A stretch of 12,119 bases of DNA from a virus: IMG/VR virus record IMGVR_UViG_3300029862_000048, positions 1 to 12,119 of that record. One strand, 5' to 3'. Positions 176 to 9,605 of the stretch are shown piece after piece. Positions within the stretch are counted from its first letter, which is position 1. The number at the start of each line of letters is the position of its first letter. The position numbers were made by a program, and so were the translations under genes. Below the pieces are notes generated by a model. The model had not been told where the DNA came from. It saw only the letters and a program-made list of their open reading frames with translations, and made no database searches.

Positions 176-207
176 TGTAAGAACGTAAGAATGTAAGTAC
201 GTAAGAA
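176..207 (+). promoter_or_regulatory. Four tandem 8-bp repeats YGTAAGWA (GTAAG at 177, 185, 193, 201) abutting the -35 element; putative operator array
   Basis: Exact 8-bp periodicity read directly. The same word in opposite orientation (CTTACATN x2-3) recurs at 4911-4926, 5501-5515 and 9580-9595, each upstream of an operon or gene start. Confidence 0.55.
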
Positions 208-213
208 AAATAG

Positions 214-243
214 TTGACACGTTGCGCGTTTTGTCGTTATAAT
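214..243 (+). promoter_or_regulatory. Near-consensus sigma70 promoter: -35 TTGACA (214-219), 18-bp spacer, -10 TATAAT (238-243)
   Basis: Both hexamers are perfect consensus. The six-frame ORF at 214 begins on the TTG of the -35 box and is therefore an artefact, and the real CDS starts at 310. Confidence 0.75.
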
Positions 244-309
244 GGACAATGTAAGCAGCAAGCAGACAAAAGCGCGCCGGTTTGCGCGATGCGAAAGAAG
301 GTAGGAGCT

Positions 310-732
310 ATGGCAACGGACAACGCTAGCGACCCTTTACGGCGCATGTATACGCTATATGCACACATCACGCCTTGCTACCCGGTACCCCGAATGTATC
401 TAGGCGTGACCAAACAGAAACCGGCGCAAAGGTGGAACAAGGGCGAGGGCTACAGGCATTCGAGCCGGTTCTATGAGCAAGTCAAAAAATACGGCTGGGA
501 CAACATACGGCATTTAATCATTGACGAGGGCTTAACGCAGGAAGAGGCCTACGAGGAGGAAAAAGACCTCATAAGGCGCATGCGGCTAACAGAACTGGGC
601 TGGAACATTGCGCCGGGCGGCGCGGAGCCTTGGAACAAGGGCAAGACGGGCGTATATAAGCCGGAAGCCCTGGAACGAATGAGGGTTGCGAAACTGGGCA
701 ACCAAAACGCAAGGAAAAGGAAGGAGGCGTAA
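310..732 (+). CDS. GIY-YIG family homing-endonuclease-like nuclease (about 140 aa) with a NUMOD3-like C-terminal DNA-binding motif
   Basis: ATG at 310 preceded by GGTAGGAG RBS. The protein aligns motif-for-motif with the I-TevI catalytic domain (YTLY...YLGVTKQKPAQRWNKGEGYRHSS...KKYGWDNIRHLIIDEGL...EKDLIRRMRLTELGWNIAPGG, i.e. GIY, YIG, Arg, His, Glu and Asn positions). The C-terminus PWNKGKTGVYKPEALERMRVAKLGNQN resembles a NUMOD3 motif. Confidence 0.7.
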   Translation: MATDNASDPLRRMYTLYAHITPCYPVPRMYLGVTKQKPAQRWNKGEGYRHSSRFYEQVKKYGWDNIRHLIIDEGLTQEEAYEEEKDLIRRMRLTELGWNIAPGGAEPWNKGKTGVYKPEALERMRVAKLGNQNARKRKEA

Positions 733-735
733 CCA

Positions 736-1494
736 ATGGCAAAAATTATTGCGATAGTGAATCAAAAGGGCGGCGTTGGAAAGACCACGACAGCCCTAAA
801 CCTGGGCGCGGGGCTTGCGAACGCGGGCAAGCGCGTTCTACTCATTGACCTAGATCCACAAGGAAGCCTTACCAAAAGCCTAGCGGTAGACGTGCGGCAA
901 GACGATTGCACGGCCTACGAGCTTCTAAGGGCTAACAAAGGCTTTTCTGAGGTTGTTAGGAGCCTACCGAACGGCTACGACCTCATACCGTGCGACTTGC
1001 GGCTAAGCGGCATAGAAAGCGGCACGGGCGACGTTGCGGGGCGTGAGTACCTTCTAAGGGAAGCGCTGGAACCGGCTACAAGTAAGTATGATTACATTCT
1101 TGTAGATTGCAGCCCATCGCTAGGCGTTCTAACGCTTAACGCGCTAACGGCTTGCAATGAGGTTTACATACCGGTACAAGCCGAGTTTCTAGCCCTTGCG
1201 GGCTTGACACAGCTAACGCAAACGGTGGGCGTGGTGCAAAGGCGGCTAAACAAGGGCATTCAGATTACCGGCGTTCTAATAACCATGTACGACCGGCGCA
1301 AGAAGCTAACGGGTGCGATAGAAGGAAAGCTAGAGCAGCTTTTCCCCGGCAAGGTCTTTGCAACGCGCATTCGCGGAAACGTTGCCCTAGCGGAAGCGCC
1401 TATAGAAGGGCTGGACATTTTCGCCTACGACAGGAACAGCAACGGGGCGAAAGACTACCAGGCATTAACTAATGAAATCCTAGAAAGAAGGTAG
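736..1494 (+). CDS. parA: ParA/Soj-family partition ATPase, small type Ib form without N-terminal HTH
   Basis: Deviant Walker A KGGVGKTT in MAKIIAIVNQKGGVGKTTTALNLGAGLA, LIDLDPQGSLT motif, 252 aa. GGAGG RBS 8 nt upstream of the start. Confidence 0.92.
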   Translation: MAKIIAIVNQKGGVGKTTTALNLGAGLANAGKRVLLIDLDPQGSLTKSLAVDVRQDDCTAYELLRANKGFSEVVRSLPNGYDLIPCDLRLSGIESGTGDVAGREYLLREALEPATSKYDYILVDCSPSLGVLTLNALTACNEVYIPVQAEFLALAGLTQLTQTVGVVQRRLNKGIQITGVLITMYDRRKKLTGAIEGKLEQLFPGKVFATRIRGNVALAEAPIEGLDIFAYDRNSNGAKDYQALTNEILERR

Positions 1495-1499
1495 ATGAA

Positions 1500-7406: not shown

Positions 7407-7410
7407 GAAC

Positions 7411-8673
7411 ATGTTTACTACTGTTCAGCAGGCTTTTAACCACTATCGAAACATGAGCGTTGCCGAGATCGAGAAGCGCGCGCAGGAGATGCACGCACTC
7501 ATTGAGACCGACCCCAACGTGGATATTAAGCAGCTTAATATCGAGCTTACCGGCCTTGCCGAGGCCAAGGCTAACGCGCAGGAGAAGCAGGGCGACCAGG
7601 GCGGCGCACAGGGCGCACAGGGCGCACAGGAGCCGGAGGCGCGCGGCTACAACCCCATTACCGGCATGAGCTTTGCCGGTGGTAGCGACCAGGCCACGAA
7701 GGGCGACGTTTTCGCAAGCGCCGAGTACCGCAGCGCCTTCTATAAGTCCCTTCTTGGCAAGAGCCTCACCCAGGCCGAGAAGAACGCCTATGGCCGCGCT
7801 ATGGACATGGAGAAGCGAGCGGCGGACGCTTACACCACCAGCGGCAACACGCCGGTTATCATCCCCACCGCCACACTCAATGAGATTGTGTCAAAGGCAC
7901 GCACCGAGGGCGGCACGCTTTCCATTGCCCGCGCCTTCAACATGCCTTCCAAGATTGCCGTACCGGTTGCCACGCCTTCCGCTAAGGCGGCATGGCACAC
8001 CGAGGGCGCAGCCGTTAACACCGAGCAGCCCGGCATCACTAACGTTAACTTCGACGCTAACGAGATTATCAAGATTTTCTCTATCAGCTCTAAGGTTAAG
8101 GCTATGAGCGTTAGCGCGTTCGAAGCCTACCTTGCCGACGAGCTTAACAAGTGCGTCTTTGAGTGCATCGCGGACGCGCTTATCAACGGCACCGGTACCG
8201 GCGAGGGCATGGGACTTGAGCACGGCGTTACCTGGGGCGCTACCAACAGCGTTACCGTGGCGGCGGGCGGCTCCATTGCCTACCTGGACGTTGTAAAGGC
8301 GGTTGCCCTTCTGAAGCGCGGCTATGCCCGTCGTGCTAAGTGGGTCATGAACAACAAGACCCTTTACACGGCCTTCTACGGCATGACCGACGATAACAAG
8401 AAGCCTATCTTTGTTCCCGATCCGCGCGACGAGACCATCGGCAAGATTCTTGGCTTTGACGTTGTCGTTGATGACTTCGTTGCGGATAACGTGGCCTATT
8501 TCGGCGACTTTGCCTACCTGGGCTTCAATCTCGCGAACGGCATCGCGGTTGAGTCTTCCACTCAGTCGGCTTTCCGTTCCGGCCTTATCGACTATCGCGG
8601 CATGGCCATTGCGGACACCAAGGTCATTGCGCCCGAGGCTTTCGTTAAGCTTTCCGTCGCAGCGGGCAAGTAG
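7411..8673 (+). CDS. Major capsid protein, HK97 fold, with N-terminal coiled-coil delta (scaffolding) domain
   Basis: 420 aa. The N-terminal 100 aa are helical and charged and include (GAQ)3, followed by a capsid-domain core (NEIVSKARTEGGTLSIAR..., C-terminal ...VKLSVAAGK). Canonical position after the protease. Confidence 0.88.
   Translation: MFTTVQQAFNHYRNMSVAEIEKRAQEMHALIETDPNVDIKQLNIELTGLAEAKANAQEKQGDQGGAQGAQGAQEPEARGYNPITGMSFAGGSDQATKGDVFASAEYRSAFYKSLLGKSLTQAEKNAYGRAMDMEKRAADAYTTSGNTPVIIPTATLNEIVSKARTEGGTLSIARAFNMPSKIAVPVATPSAKAAWHTEGAAVNTEQPGITNVNFDANEIIKIFSISSKVKAMSVSAFEAYLADELNKCVFECIADALINGTGTGEGMGLEHGVTWGATNSVTVAAGGSIAYLDVVKAVALLKRGYARRAKWVMNNKTLYTAFYGMTDDNKKPIFVPDPRDETIGKILGFDVVVDDFVADNVAYFGDFAYLGFNLANGIAVESSTQSAFRSGLIDYRGMAIADTKVIAPEAFVKLSVAAGK
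7613..7639 (+). repeat. Three perfect tandem copies of GGCGCACAG inside the capsid delta domain (encode GAQGAQGAQ)
   Basis: Read directly from the sequence. In-frame, so copy-number change would keep the frame. Confidence 0.8.
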
Positions 8674-8693
8674 CAGCGGGGAGGGCTTGACGT

Positions 8694-8969
8694 ATGGCTA
8701 ACGAGGTTATCAGCCTGGACGAGGCGCGCGAGTGGTTGCGCCTGGACAACACCGACAACGACGTAGTTATTGCCGGGCTTATCGAGGGCGCGGCGGAATA
8801 CATCGAGATTGCTACCGGCCTAGACCCGTTCGCCCAGGCGGCAAGCCCGCTTGCCAAGACGGCCACGAAGCTTATCTTGTCGCTTCTGTACGACCCGACG
8901 CAGACCGACACGGACAGGCTGCAACGCTCGATTGACAACCTGCTAAAGGCGGTAGCGCACGTGGGCTAG
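8694..8969 (+). CDS. gp6-like head-tail connector protein (Phage_connect_1-type)
   Basis: 91 aa. VISLDEAREWLRLDNTDNDVVIAGLIEGAAEYIEIATGL matches the hallmark N-terminus of gp6-like connector (DNA-packaging) proteins. Confidence 0.8.
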   Translation: MANEVISLDEAREWLRLDNTDNDVVIAGLIEGAAEYIEIATGLDPFAQAASPLAKTATKLILSLLYDPTQTDTDRLQRSIDNLLKAVAHVG

Positions 8970-8988
8970 CTAGGTTGGTGGTGGGACT

Positions 8989-9276
8989 ATGAAGGAGTTT
9001 GCTAAGGCGTTCTACACGTCGAAGGCATGGAGGGATACCCAAAAGGCTTACATGCAGAGCAAGCACTATGTATGCGAGCGTTGCGGGCGACCGGCCTTCA
9101 TAGTCCACCACCGCACCTACATTACGCCGGCGAACATCAACGACCCGGCTATCACGCTGGACTGGGACAACCTAGAGGCACTATGCCCGACGTGCCACCA
9201 GCACGAGCACTTCACAGGCAGGGCGACGGCGGAGGGCTTGCGGTTCGACGAAGCGGGCAACTTGGTAAGGGAATAG
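8989..9276 (+). CDS. HNH endonuclease, phage packaging-associated
   Basis: 95 aa with CERCG...HH...N...LCPTCHQHEH, a zinc-finger HNH motif, sitting immediately upstream of terS/terL as in cos-packaging HK97-like phages. Confidence 0.88.
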   Translation: MKEFAKAFYTSKAWRDTQKAYMQSKHYVCERCGRPAFIVHHRTYITPANINDPAITLDWDNLEALCPTCHQHEHFTGRATAEGLRFDEAGNLVRE

Positions 9277-9605
9277 GTACGTTGTGCAAGGCGTTCCGGG
9301 TAGCGGCCTGGAATGCTTGCCAGGCGGACAGACGGCGGGGCTTGTCACCCAAAGGCTAGAGCCTGGATTATTCGGGGAAGCAGACCAAGGCGGCAGCTGC
9401 TAGCTATCTCCTTCAATTCATTTCTTCATGGCTAGAAGTTGCGCTATTCGGAGCGTCTTTCACAGCGGTAACCATGACCCGAACGCCCCCAGGGCGATAG
9501 CGGAGCAGGCTCCCGCGTAATCACAGAGCCCAGGTTTTTAAACCTCTCCGGGGTTTCCCATAGGAGGGGGGTAAGACTACTTACATGCTTACATGATTAC
9601 TTGAA
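9277..9605. other. 330-bp ORF-free spacer between HNH and terS; candidate cos/packaging-initiation region
   Basis: Contains an 8-bp palindrome GCAGCTGC (9397-9404), a GC hairpin cgccc/gggcg (about 9483-9496), the inverted repeat AGGTTT-TT-AAACCT (9531-9544), a G6 tract (9566-9571) and the motifs GTAAG (9571-9575) plus CTTACATG x2 (9580-9595). Confidence 0.35.

Follow-up and report, generated by a model that had tools for sequence, protein, structure and literature searches.

The closest described counterparts of the element reported here are two plasmid partition systems of type Ib and the phage-inducible chromosomal islands that form capsids (cfPICIs). In plasmid TP228, the operator (OF) of ParG, a ribbon-helix-helix (RHH) protein, comprises eight ACTC boxes with regular 4-bp AT-rich spacers, in direct and inverted orientations; one dimer binds each box, and the 12-box centromere parH lies just upstream of OF (PMC3130281). 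In pSM19035, the omega protein binds contiguous 7-bp repeats in either orientation, which overlap the copy-control, parA, and own-gene promoters, and at least four contiguous repeats are needed for ParA activation (PMC9499535). Xis/AlpA-type winged-helix proteins (recombination directionality factors, RDFs) bind direct repeats with a spacing of one helical turn (PMC7498355), and AlpA-type regulators are core components of both PICIs and cfPICIs (PMC10085698). Published cfPICIs are chromosomal in all but 3 of 969 cases, and the integrase is called a core gene (PMC10085698). We analyzed IMG/VR record IMGVR_UViG_3300029862_000048, positions 1–12,119 (hereafter the window, meaning the whole 12,119-nt stretch), a capsid-encoding, phage-like satellite with genes for a ParA ATPase and a small RHH-like protein and with arrays of an 8-bp unit in five non-coding places. 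These short repeats are real and conserved. On balance, we consider it probable that they are the sites of the 109-aa RHH-like protein, which would then act as a centromere-binding protein of type Ib (ParG/omega-like) and double as a global regulator.

The consensus of the array unit is TGTAAGAA. Units are arranged head-to-tail, in strict 8-bp register and in both orientations:

176–207, + strand: array A, four direct units, TGTAAGAA CGTAAGAA TGTAAGTA CGTAAGAA.
4909–4924, − strand: array B, two reverse units, TGCTTACA TTCTTACA, central in the origin, with an inverted iteron on one side and the direct iterons on the other.
5484–5515, mixed strands: array C, four units (forward, forward, reverse, reverse), TGTAAGCG TGTATGCA TTCTTACA TTCTTGCA, overlapping the −35 element of the putative portal promoter.
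5539–5570, mixed strands: array C′, four units (reverse, forward, forward, reverse), CTTTTACA TGTAGGAT TGTAAGAA TTACTACA, from the edge of the −10 element to approximately +24.
9570–9601, mixed strands: array D, four units (forward, reverse, reverse, reverse), GGTAAGAC TACTTACA TGCTTACA TGATTACT.
250–257, + strand: single unit TGTAAGCA, at approximately +1 of promoter P1, only partly conserved (TGTAGG or TGTACG in relatives L005, L008, and L009).

All array positions given in an initial annotation of this DNA were correct when re-read in the sequence, and the sites were larger than it had described when read in 8-bp frames. Thus, positions 5500–5515 (TTCTTACA TTCTTGCA) are the 3′ half of the four-unit block at 5484–5515, and the inverted repeat TTACA-N8-TGTAA (5542–5559) falls within the second four-unit block (5539–5570). 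The raw GTAAG/CTTAC count, which the same annotation had proposed as a check, showed no significant excess (30 copies vs. 23.2 ± 4.6 in 1000 dinucleotide shuffles, P ≈ 0.09). Same-strand GTAAG pairs exactly 8 bp apart numbered 5, compared with 0.013 expected (0 of the 1000 shuffles). Intergenic DNA (1,374 nt, 11% of the sequence) held 14 of the 30 GTAAG/CTTAC copies. When the sequence was scanned with a position weight matrix (PWM) for three in-register units, we observed seven clusters of ≥20 bits at spacing 8 (0.018 per shuffle) and none at spacings 5, 6, 7, 9, 10, and 11; because the matrix was trained on the very sites that it scored, the off-register spacings are the fairer control. The five top clusters were the five non-coding sites, and the two weaker ones were located inside parA and the RHH gene. 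Action of the units at the RNA level was considered and dropped: orientations are opposite between sites, and array A precedes its promoter.

The cluster in parA (1073–1104; 1081–1104 in the PWM scan) lies over the Walker B motif and reads CGGCTACA AGTAAGTA TGATTACA TTCTTGTA. The cluster in the RHH gene (1709–1732) reads TGTAAGCA AGAAAGAA GCCTTACA and includes a TGTAAG-N12-CTTACA pair, as in array C.

The arrays were compared among relatives with the following features of the window:

736–1494, + strand: ParA, 252 aa, a small Walker-type, Soj-like ATPase.
1500–1829, + strand: RHH-like protein, 109 aa, with no strong Pfam match; the proposed array reader and ParA partner.
1843–2046, + strand: HTH_17 (excisionase/AlpA-like) protein, 67 aa, Pfam HTH_17 1.3e-11; the rival candidate reader.
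2033–3202, + strand: p389, a 389-aa protein with no Pfam or PHROG match.
3205–4212, + strand: NrS-1-type primase-polymerase.
4348–4785, + strand: 145-aa protein.
4924–4993, + strand: three 22-bp iterons (ATTTGCAAACCTAGCCAAAGTG), found by repeat search; the replication origin.

Homologues of the 109-aa protein were found mostly on 12.1- to 12.9-kb contigs from human-gut metagenomes, and loci L001, L005–L012, and L134–L136 were syntenic with the window. A p389-based search for related loci found nothing in IMG/VR and only three more close relatives in JGI metagenomes; a scan of IMG/VR for GTAAGNANGTAAGNANGTAAG gave more than 120 matches, none of them related by protein content, the pattern being too short to be specific. 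Arrays were present at homologous positions in at least nine close relatives (L001, L005, L008, L009, L011, L012, and L134–L136). Array A had two to four units in the same place, array B (CTTACAtTCTTACA) was fixed in all close relatives despite differing iterons, the 3′ half of array C and the array C′ sequence TGTAGGATTGTAAGAA were each invariant in six relatives, and array D was conserved. In alignments of the region upstream of portal, the invariant islands were the array units and the −10 element. The iterons beside array B varied by element (general form AAACC-nnGnnA-AAGTG-nnnnGC), and among close relatives they changed in step with p389 (37–65% identity) and the primase (about 50%). Iterons are repeats of approximately 20 bp that covary with their initiator, which describes the 22-bp repeats at 4924–4993 and not the 8-bp units. 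Because the units were constant while the iterons changed, the units form a separate class. From its covariation with the iterons, p389 is a candidate iteron-binding initiator; its position is constant across the superfamily, and it is the most divergent core protein (26–65% identity where detectable). The RHH DNA-binding core and the HTH_17 recognition helix were both invariant in the close family, which therefore cannot discriminate between these two proteins.

The portal superfamily is very large (3,264 metagenomic proteins at E ≤ 1e-30), and many of its members lie on 12- to 14-kb contigs. Our sample of diverged relatives comprised three syntenic elements (L137–L139) and 80 IMG/VR loci. 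ParA and a small RHH-like protein occurred together in 29 loci in total, nearly all of which also had HTH_17. Among the 80 IMG/VR loci, 22 carried the ParA-RHH pair, with HTH_17 in 20 of these (episomal type), and at least 25 of those measuring 11 kb or more were without the pair (integrative type). In diverged elements, the array positions and the 8- to 9-bp period were kept and the word was changed. Words in distant relatives were called by eye from enriched words:

Window family: TGTAAGAA.
L137: AGACAGCA, with four units before P1, two before portal, and two before terS.
L138: TCTAGAAA / GATAGAAA, at each of the four places.
L139, L160, L163, L169, and L210: TGTAAACA.
L207, L211, L217, and L218: GTAATA.
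L143: GACTAACT.

When words were aligned against proteins, the word mostly tracked the class of the RHH beta-strand:

RHH strand VVVSFRLD: word GTAAG.
RHH strand TLVSWRIS: word GCAAGAC.
RHH strand QLALRLDK: word CTAGAAA.
RHH strand RATFIV (7 clear loci): word GTAAAC.
RHH strand T[AM]SF[KR][IV]RK (5 loci): word GTAATA.

The HTH_17 helix CSTRT.KRY was common to the window, L137, and L138, in which the words are GTAAG, GCAAGAC, and CTAGAAA, respectively, and it was highly variable within the GTAAAC and GTAATA groups, in which the word is constant. The HTH_17 protein of L138 was 64% identical to that of the window and kept its helix and wing (CSTRTIKRYIDA / KLGRSWYFTE); its word (TCTAGAAA) and RHH strand were different. 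Superfamily members without the ParA-RHH-HTH_17 triple showed no tandem arrays before portal or terS; they had no intergenic portal promoter, and after cos only one GGGG-GTAAA box. Arrays were likewise absent from the integrated relative L013. Word-agnostic three-unit runs at period 8 numbered 4.5 per 100 kb in ParA-bearing relatives vs. 1.3 in the others, a modest contrast (14 vs. 5 runs; 3.4-fold rarer in members without the triple). Whole-word turnover at fixed positions was thus observed directly, as were the array phasing, its conservation, and the parA-RHH gene order. The idea, already present in the initial annotation, of cooperative binding by a small regulator encoded by the element gained support: the arrays are conserved islands in variable DNA, and words change while positions and the 8- to 9-bp period stay.

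ParA was assigned by its family matches (Pfam AAA_31, 4.9e-55; also the CbiA and ParA families), and its full-length matches in the PDB were a ParA family protein and Soj-type segregation proteins. Like the ParA of type Ib systems, it is small and of Walker type and has no N-terminal DNA-binding domain. The RHH gene starts after a 5-nt gap from parA. The N-terminal half of its product is acidic and disordered, and the core lies at residues 47–86 (DVVVSFRLDE...; core sequence KDVVVSFRLDEAVVDRFNDYAF..SKKEALQTII.EYL); in the AF2 monomer, residues 19–46 were unstructured and residues 47–86 formed strand-helix-helix (pLDDT 72–78). Family matches were weak and all of RHH type, with BrnA_antitoxin in 12 of 18 members (best 4e-4) and RHH_1 in one, and the PHROG match was also weak (CopG-like repressor, 5e-4). 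A PDB profile search with the RHH alignment gave no match, a Foldseek search with the monomer was not significant (E > 2; Reg576, Arc, and AmrZ among the top matches), and tblastn of the protein against phage and plasmid collections found no match. The 109-aa protein probably has the RHH fold, as judged from these matches and the model. The satellite RHH proteins share an N-terminal segment, MAKKGFDLEK, which is absent from phage homologues, which lack ParA; this segment would fit a ParA-contact tail. The HTH_17 protein matched a PHROG excisionase (8e-12), and its nearest solved structure was mycobacteriophage Xis (E = 0.006). Its homologues were found on these ~12-kb elements only, and tblastn against the phage collection returned only distant mycobacteriophage excisionases.

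The phage homologues of the RHH protein are carried by L002–L004, 34- to 38-kb temperate siphophages with a serine recombinase and Gram-positive-type lysins. Their RHH core was near-identical to that of the window, with an identical beta-strand, and the gene was approximately 85% identical in DNA (window positions 1553–1799); the N-terminus was different, and there was a C-terminal extension. Window positions 4272–4775, in the 145-aa gene with its leader, were 87.5% identical to phage DNA, and the 71-nt leader (4272–4342) was 96% identical to L002 and L003. In L004, the 145-aa gene is located directly downstream of the RHH gene. The identity of the RHH gene and of positions 4272–4775 points to recent exchange between satellite and phage and, hence, to a shared host; phages of this type may be helper phages. 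At the position of the RHH-gene cluster (1709–1732), the phage homologues have the Leu codon TTG rather than TTA and hence are without the CTTACA. The phages also carry a promoter-like motif, TATAGGTnTATACT (L002, 9697–9710, 10,470–10,483, and 14,990–15,003; L004, 9948, 10,519, and 15,001), which flanks the phage RHH gene and precedes a later gene block. We rejected this motif as a site of the phage RHH protein: it recurs elsewhere in the phages as a promoter-like element and is absent from the satellites.

The arrays lie among the following control elements:

105–131, + strand: terminator-like hairpin (AAACGGCTT / AGGCCGTTT, 6-nt loop), read from the sequence and present in all relatives.
146–169, − strand: one iteron copy, TTGCAAATCACTTTGGCGTGGTTT, in the orientation opposite to that of the origin iterons and directly 5′ of array A; 92% complementary to 4930–4953.
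214–243, + strand: promoter P1, TTGACA-18-TATAAT, a 12/12 sigma-70 match (−35 at 214–219, −10 at 238–243).
4885–4903, − strand: inverted iteron-like element GGGACACTTTGACATGGTT, left of array B, resembling the iteron type AACCATGTCAAAGTGTCCC of relatives.
5433–5455, − strand: one iteron copy, inverted, upstream of array C; 91% complementary to 4927–4949.
5511–5540, + strand: putative portal (late) promoter, TTGCAA-18-TGTGt-TATTCT, below the scanner threshold (−35 at 5511–5516, extended −10 at 5535–5540).
9523–9532, no strand assigned: predicted cos cleavage region, approximately 10 nt between ...gtaatc and ggttttt..., mapped by homology.

The hairpin closes the late operon just 5′ of the P1 control region and was missed by the terminator scanner because its T-run belongs to the stem. 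P1 drives the cargo-ParA-RHH-HTH_17-p389-primase operon, and both of its hexamers were kept in relatives; array A ends 6 bp before the −35 element. The iteron copy at 146–169 was also present in L005, L008, and L009. Single inverted copies of the iteron family (AAACC-N6-AAGTG-N) beside arrays A, B, and C make up a recurring iteron-plus-array module, and array B touches the iterons at 4924. On the 3′ side of the iterons, positions 5000–5130 are AT-rich, with CTNCAAGT-like words at an 8- to 9-bp period followed by a purine-rich tract (aaaagggggtagagagggggaaaggggatataggg); the counterpart in L001 and L008 reads ctacaagtt ctacaagt ctttacat ctttacaag. This region may be an unwinding or priming zone of the origin. 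Arrays C and C′ bracket the putative portal promoter, of which TTGCA(A/T) and GTGTTAT(T/C)CT were conserved in relatives.

The cos position was derived from the contig ends of L005 and L009, in which Illumina adapters were joined directly to ...gcgagtaac and ggtttctaaacc... (window positions ~9513–9546). Because the adapters were ligated directly, defined physical DNA ends exist. The approximately 10 nt between the two ends were missing, yet they were present in circular relatives, which suggests that a 3′ cos overhang was removed during library preparation. Array D begins 37 nt beyond the predicted left end of the genome and ends 19 nt short of position 9621, where terS is likely to start; a GGGG-GTAA box, also present in non-ParA relatives, overlaps its first unit. 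A terS promoter within array D was sought and rejected, as no acceptable −35/−10 pair was found. The earlier statement that arrays precede every transcription unit thus held only in part, for P1 and the putative portal promoter, whereas array B lies within the origin and array D is cos-proximal without a recognizable promoter.

As a reader of the arrays, the RHH protein is clearly the better candidate when compared with HTH_17, because centromere-binding proteins of RHH type are known to use sites of this format, with an 8-bp period and units in both orientations, and because the word mostly follows the RHH strand class and not the HTH_17 helix. The RHH reading is also favored by the close relatives, in which the arrays and the RHH core were invariant while the iterons changed with p389 and the primase. 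The genetic context fits as well: the largest direct array lies just upstream of the parA-RHH operon promoter, and short repeats at a 7- to 8-bp period, direct and inverted, are found at the par promoter in type Ib systems and here. Membership in the type Ib partition systems is therefore partly established, with agreement in ParA and in site format and an RHH fold that is probable. Several observations weigh against the RHH protein as the reader. The RHH assignment comes from weak sequence matches and from a monomer model of medium confidence. In L169, a window-like strand (AVVSFRID) is paired with the word TGTAAACA, which also accompanies the very different RATFIV strand; the word calls in distant relatives were made by eye and were ambiguous in L146, L147, and L214; and RHH and HTH_17 always co-occurred, with no element separating them cleanly. 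Good units number only two in array B, and no promoter was seen near array D. Moreover, GTAAG arrays, or even good single units, were absent from the 15–20 kb read around the RHH gene of L002–L004 (approximately 13 kb of each phage was unread). One reading of these array-less phages is that the RHH core does not read GTAAG. According to another, which we consider doubtful, the targets of the phage protein are on the satellite, and the arrays are a point of helper-satellite cross-talk.

The initial annotation had named both the HTH_17 and the RHH protein as possible readers and had likened the coupling by one regulator to the action of AlpA in PICIs. That HTH_17 reads the arrays, activating or repressing all units, seems unlikely to us, although it has a bona fide DNA-binding fold (Pfam 1.3e-11), was always present with arrays, has homologues confined to these ~12-kb elements, and has a recognition helix that was invariant in the close family; furthermore, Xis-type proteins coat tandem repeats cooperatively (PMC7498355), and AlpA-type regulators are core to PICIs and cfPICIs (PMC10085698). 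Xis/RDF sites are direct repeats spaced by a helical turn, whereas the units here have a period of 8 bp, none at 10–11, and mixed orientations. L138 kept the helix and the wing and its word differed, and the helix varied widely within the GTAAAC and GTAATA groups at constant word. The AlpA analogy of the earlier proposal was not supported, and its RHH part was the one that fitted the 8-bp, mixed-orientation format. A similarly unlikely alternative is that the arrays are landing pads for a helper-phage or host factor acting in trans, such as the phage RHH homologue, and so sense helper infection, either in place of or in addition to serving the RHH protein of the element itself. The near-exact phage core with its identical beta-strand and approximately 85% DNA identity, the recent exchange and shared host indicated by the 87.5% identity of 4272–4775 to the gene beside the phage RHH gene, and the absence of an evident own site in the phage regions read are all compatible with it. 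However, the phages are only putative helpers, the absence of an own site applies to all but ~13 kb of each phage, and in diverged satellites the word changed along with the RHH protein that they themselves encode, which points to a cis-encoded reader. A trans factor of this kind would still place an RHH domain on the arrays and would extend, rather than replace, the RHH model.

It is less likely still that the arrays are packaging or replication architecture; TerS, p389, or the primase would then be the reader, array D would consist of TerS sites resembling cosB, and array B would belong to the origin. Array D does lie between the predicted cos end and terS, the location of a lambda-type cosB, its first unit overlaps the GGGG-GTAA box that is kept beside cos in relatives without ParA/RHH, and array B is embedded between iterons. 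However, two promoters distant from cos and the origin are likewise bracketed by the array word in identical 8-bp register; cosB repeats would be confined to the interval between cos and terS, and the same units were found at four other places. Relatives with a homologous terS but no RHH had a single box and no array, and p389 and the primase diverged with the iterons while the arrays were constant. Chance or compositional repeats, or functionless relics of duplication, are extremely unlikely. The raw GTAAG count was within chance (P ≈ 0.09), the iteron-plus-array modules (146–207, 4885–4993, and 5433–5515) resemble duplicated blocks, and the two in-register coding clusters (1081–1104 and 1709–1732) are possible products of codon constraint. 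On the other hand, the 8-bp phasing never occurred in shuffles, positions were conserved though flanks and iterons differed, and whole-word turnover at fixed positions is a signature of co-evolving protein sites, so that the comparative data already disfavor chance.

We infer the identity of the reader, the direction of regulation, and a centromere function; with the RHH protein as the reader, the mechanism would be as follows. One RHH dimer would bind each 8-bp unit, and neighboring dimers would act cooperatively, coating blocks of as many as four units, whatever their orientation. At P1 (176–207 and the unit at +1), the coat beside the −35 element would autoregulate the par/rep operon and supply a ParA-activating centromere. 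At the portal promoter, the two four-unit blocks would occlude the −35 element and the start site, and the capsid genes would be silent in the plasmid state. At the origin, the two-unit site between iterons would link partition or copy control to replication, and at cos/terS the four-unit block would be a further centromere or roadblock or would modulate packaging. A single protein-array code would thus partition the plasmid, mark the origin, autoregulate the genes for maintenance, and keep those for capsid and packaging locked. In an improbable extension of this model, the RHH homologue of a helper phage might act at the arrays via mixed dimers or competition, and helper infection would be sensed there.

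The window has the following further genes, and all of its genes are on the + strand:

310–732, + strand: GIY-YIG-like cargo gene.
5605 onwards, + strand: portal, S78 protease, HK97 capsid, connector, HNH, terS, terL, and head-completion protein.

Positions 1–99 were identical to 12,021–12,119 (a 99-nt terminal overlap), and the window is therefore a closed, complete unit of 12,020 bp and not a fragment. Family scans of the whole 12,020-bp circle found no tail, lysis, or integrase genes among the window open reading frames (ORFs). Thus, the window has head and packaging genes without tail or lysis genes, as in cfPICIs, and it differs from them in the integrase and chromosomal location, with no integrase family match in any ORF. 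The relative L007 spans more than 1.5 element units, which indicates a circular or concatemeric, non-integrated state. L013 is an integrated relative in a Defluviitaleaceae metagenome-assembled genome, with head and packaging proteins 48–70% identical; it was the only relative, and a distant one, found in a portal profile search of genome contigs. Whole-window megablast against the phage and plasmid collections gave no match, and Rfam and tRNA scans of the window found nothing. A repeat of approximately 73 nt (4184–4256 vs. 5289–5361, 73% identical), which includes ctagggtatttgccca.ctttgggctaa, is located after the primase gene and again before the portal control region; it was kept in relatives and has no Rfam match. 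A partial inverted copy lies at 52–80 (gcaatgggcaaatac), after the head-completion gene.

If a single factor acts at all sites, maintenance would be coupled with capsid and packaging expression. If the arrays are read by the RHH protein, the satellite would have given up integration to live as a partitioned plasmid, and the type Ib centromere-operator code would have been reused to silence capsid and packaging genes. The words TGTAAGAA, TCTAGAAA, AGACAGCA, TGTAAACA, and GTAATA are natural specificity variants among relatives. The episomal form may be common and overlooked, because 22 of the 80 IMG/VR loci carry ParA-RHH and surveys report chromosomal cfPICIs. An RHH domain common to satellites and temperate phages suggests a concrete route of helper-satellite cross-talk. 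The widest interpretation, namely, a large undescribed group of ~12- to 14-kb episomal capsid-forming satellites with one RHH master switch that a phage RHH homologue flips in trans, is speculative and in our judgment improbable.

MetJ metboxes are 8-bp tandem units. MetJ, Arc, CopG, and Reg576 resemble the system proposed here in that beta-ribbons read short units in tandem and adjacent dimers cooperate, but they are pure transcription factors without a ParA, and they act on palindromic units at a single operator. With cfPICIs, the window shares the portal, prohead protease, HK97 capsid, connector, HNH, terS, terL, and head-completion genes (PMC10085698), as well as the AlpA/MerR-type HTH and primase of the core list, without tail or lysis genes (PMC10085698). 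It differs from them in having ParA, RHH, and iterons in place of an integrase and in that window-type contigs self-close or exceed 1.5 units, whereas the integrative relatives are without arrays.

In pSM19035, as proposed for the window, a single RHH protein serves a small ParA as centromere binder and also acts as a global repressor, and in both cases the repeats are non-palindromic and contiguous (four-unit blocks at A, C, C′, and D in the window, with one site in the origin). The period is 8 bp here vs. 7 bp there, with 2–4 units vs. 7–10, and the window ParA is nearer to the Soj type (1wcv, 6e-49) than to delta (5e-14); the structural and packaging genes and the cos-adjacent site targeted in the window are without a pSM19035 counterpart. 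In parFGH of TP228, the gene of a small ParA-type ATPase precedes that of a small RHH protein whose N-terminal tail is flexible; in the window, parA precedes the gene of a small, probable RHH protein with a disordered N-terminal half. In both, short units at an 8-bp period (in TP228, a 4-bp box and a 4-bp spacer), direct and inverted, occur with an array upstream of the par operon. ParG coats its arrays cooperatively, and these function both as operator and as centromere (PMC3130281); the same is proposed for the window. The core word is GTAAG here vs. ACTC there, and similarity to ParG is not detectable in sequence. Arrays of 2–4 units, compared with 8 and 12 in TP228, are spread over five places of a 12-kb circle, and the replicon is a capsid-encoding phage-like element, whereas TP228 is a resistance plasmid. 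The sites of the window include, in contrast to those of TP228, the late capsid promoter, the origin, and the flank of cos.

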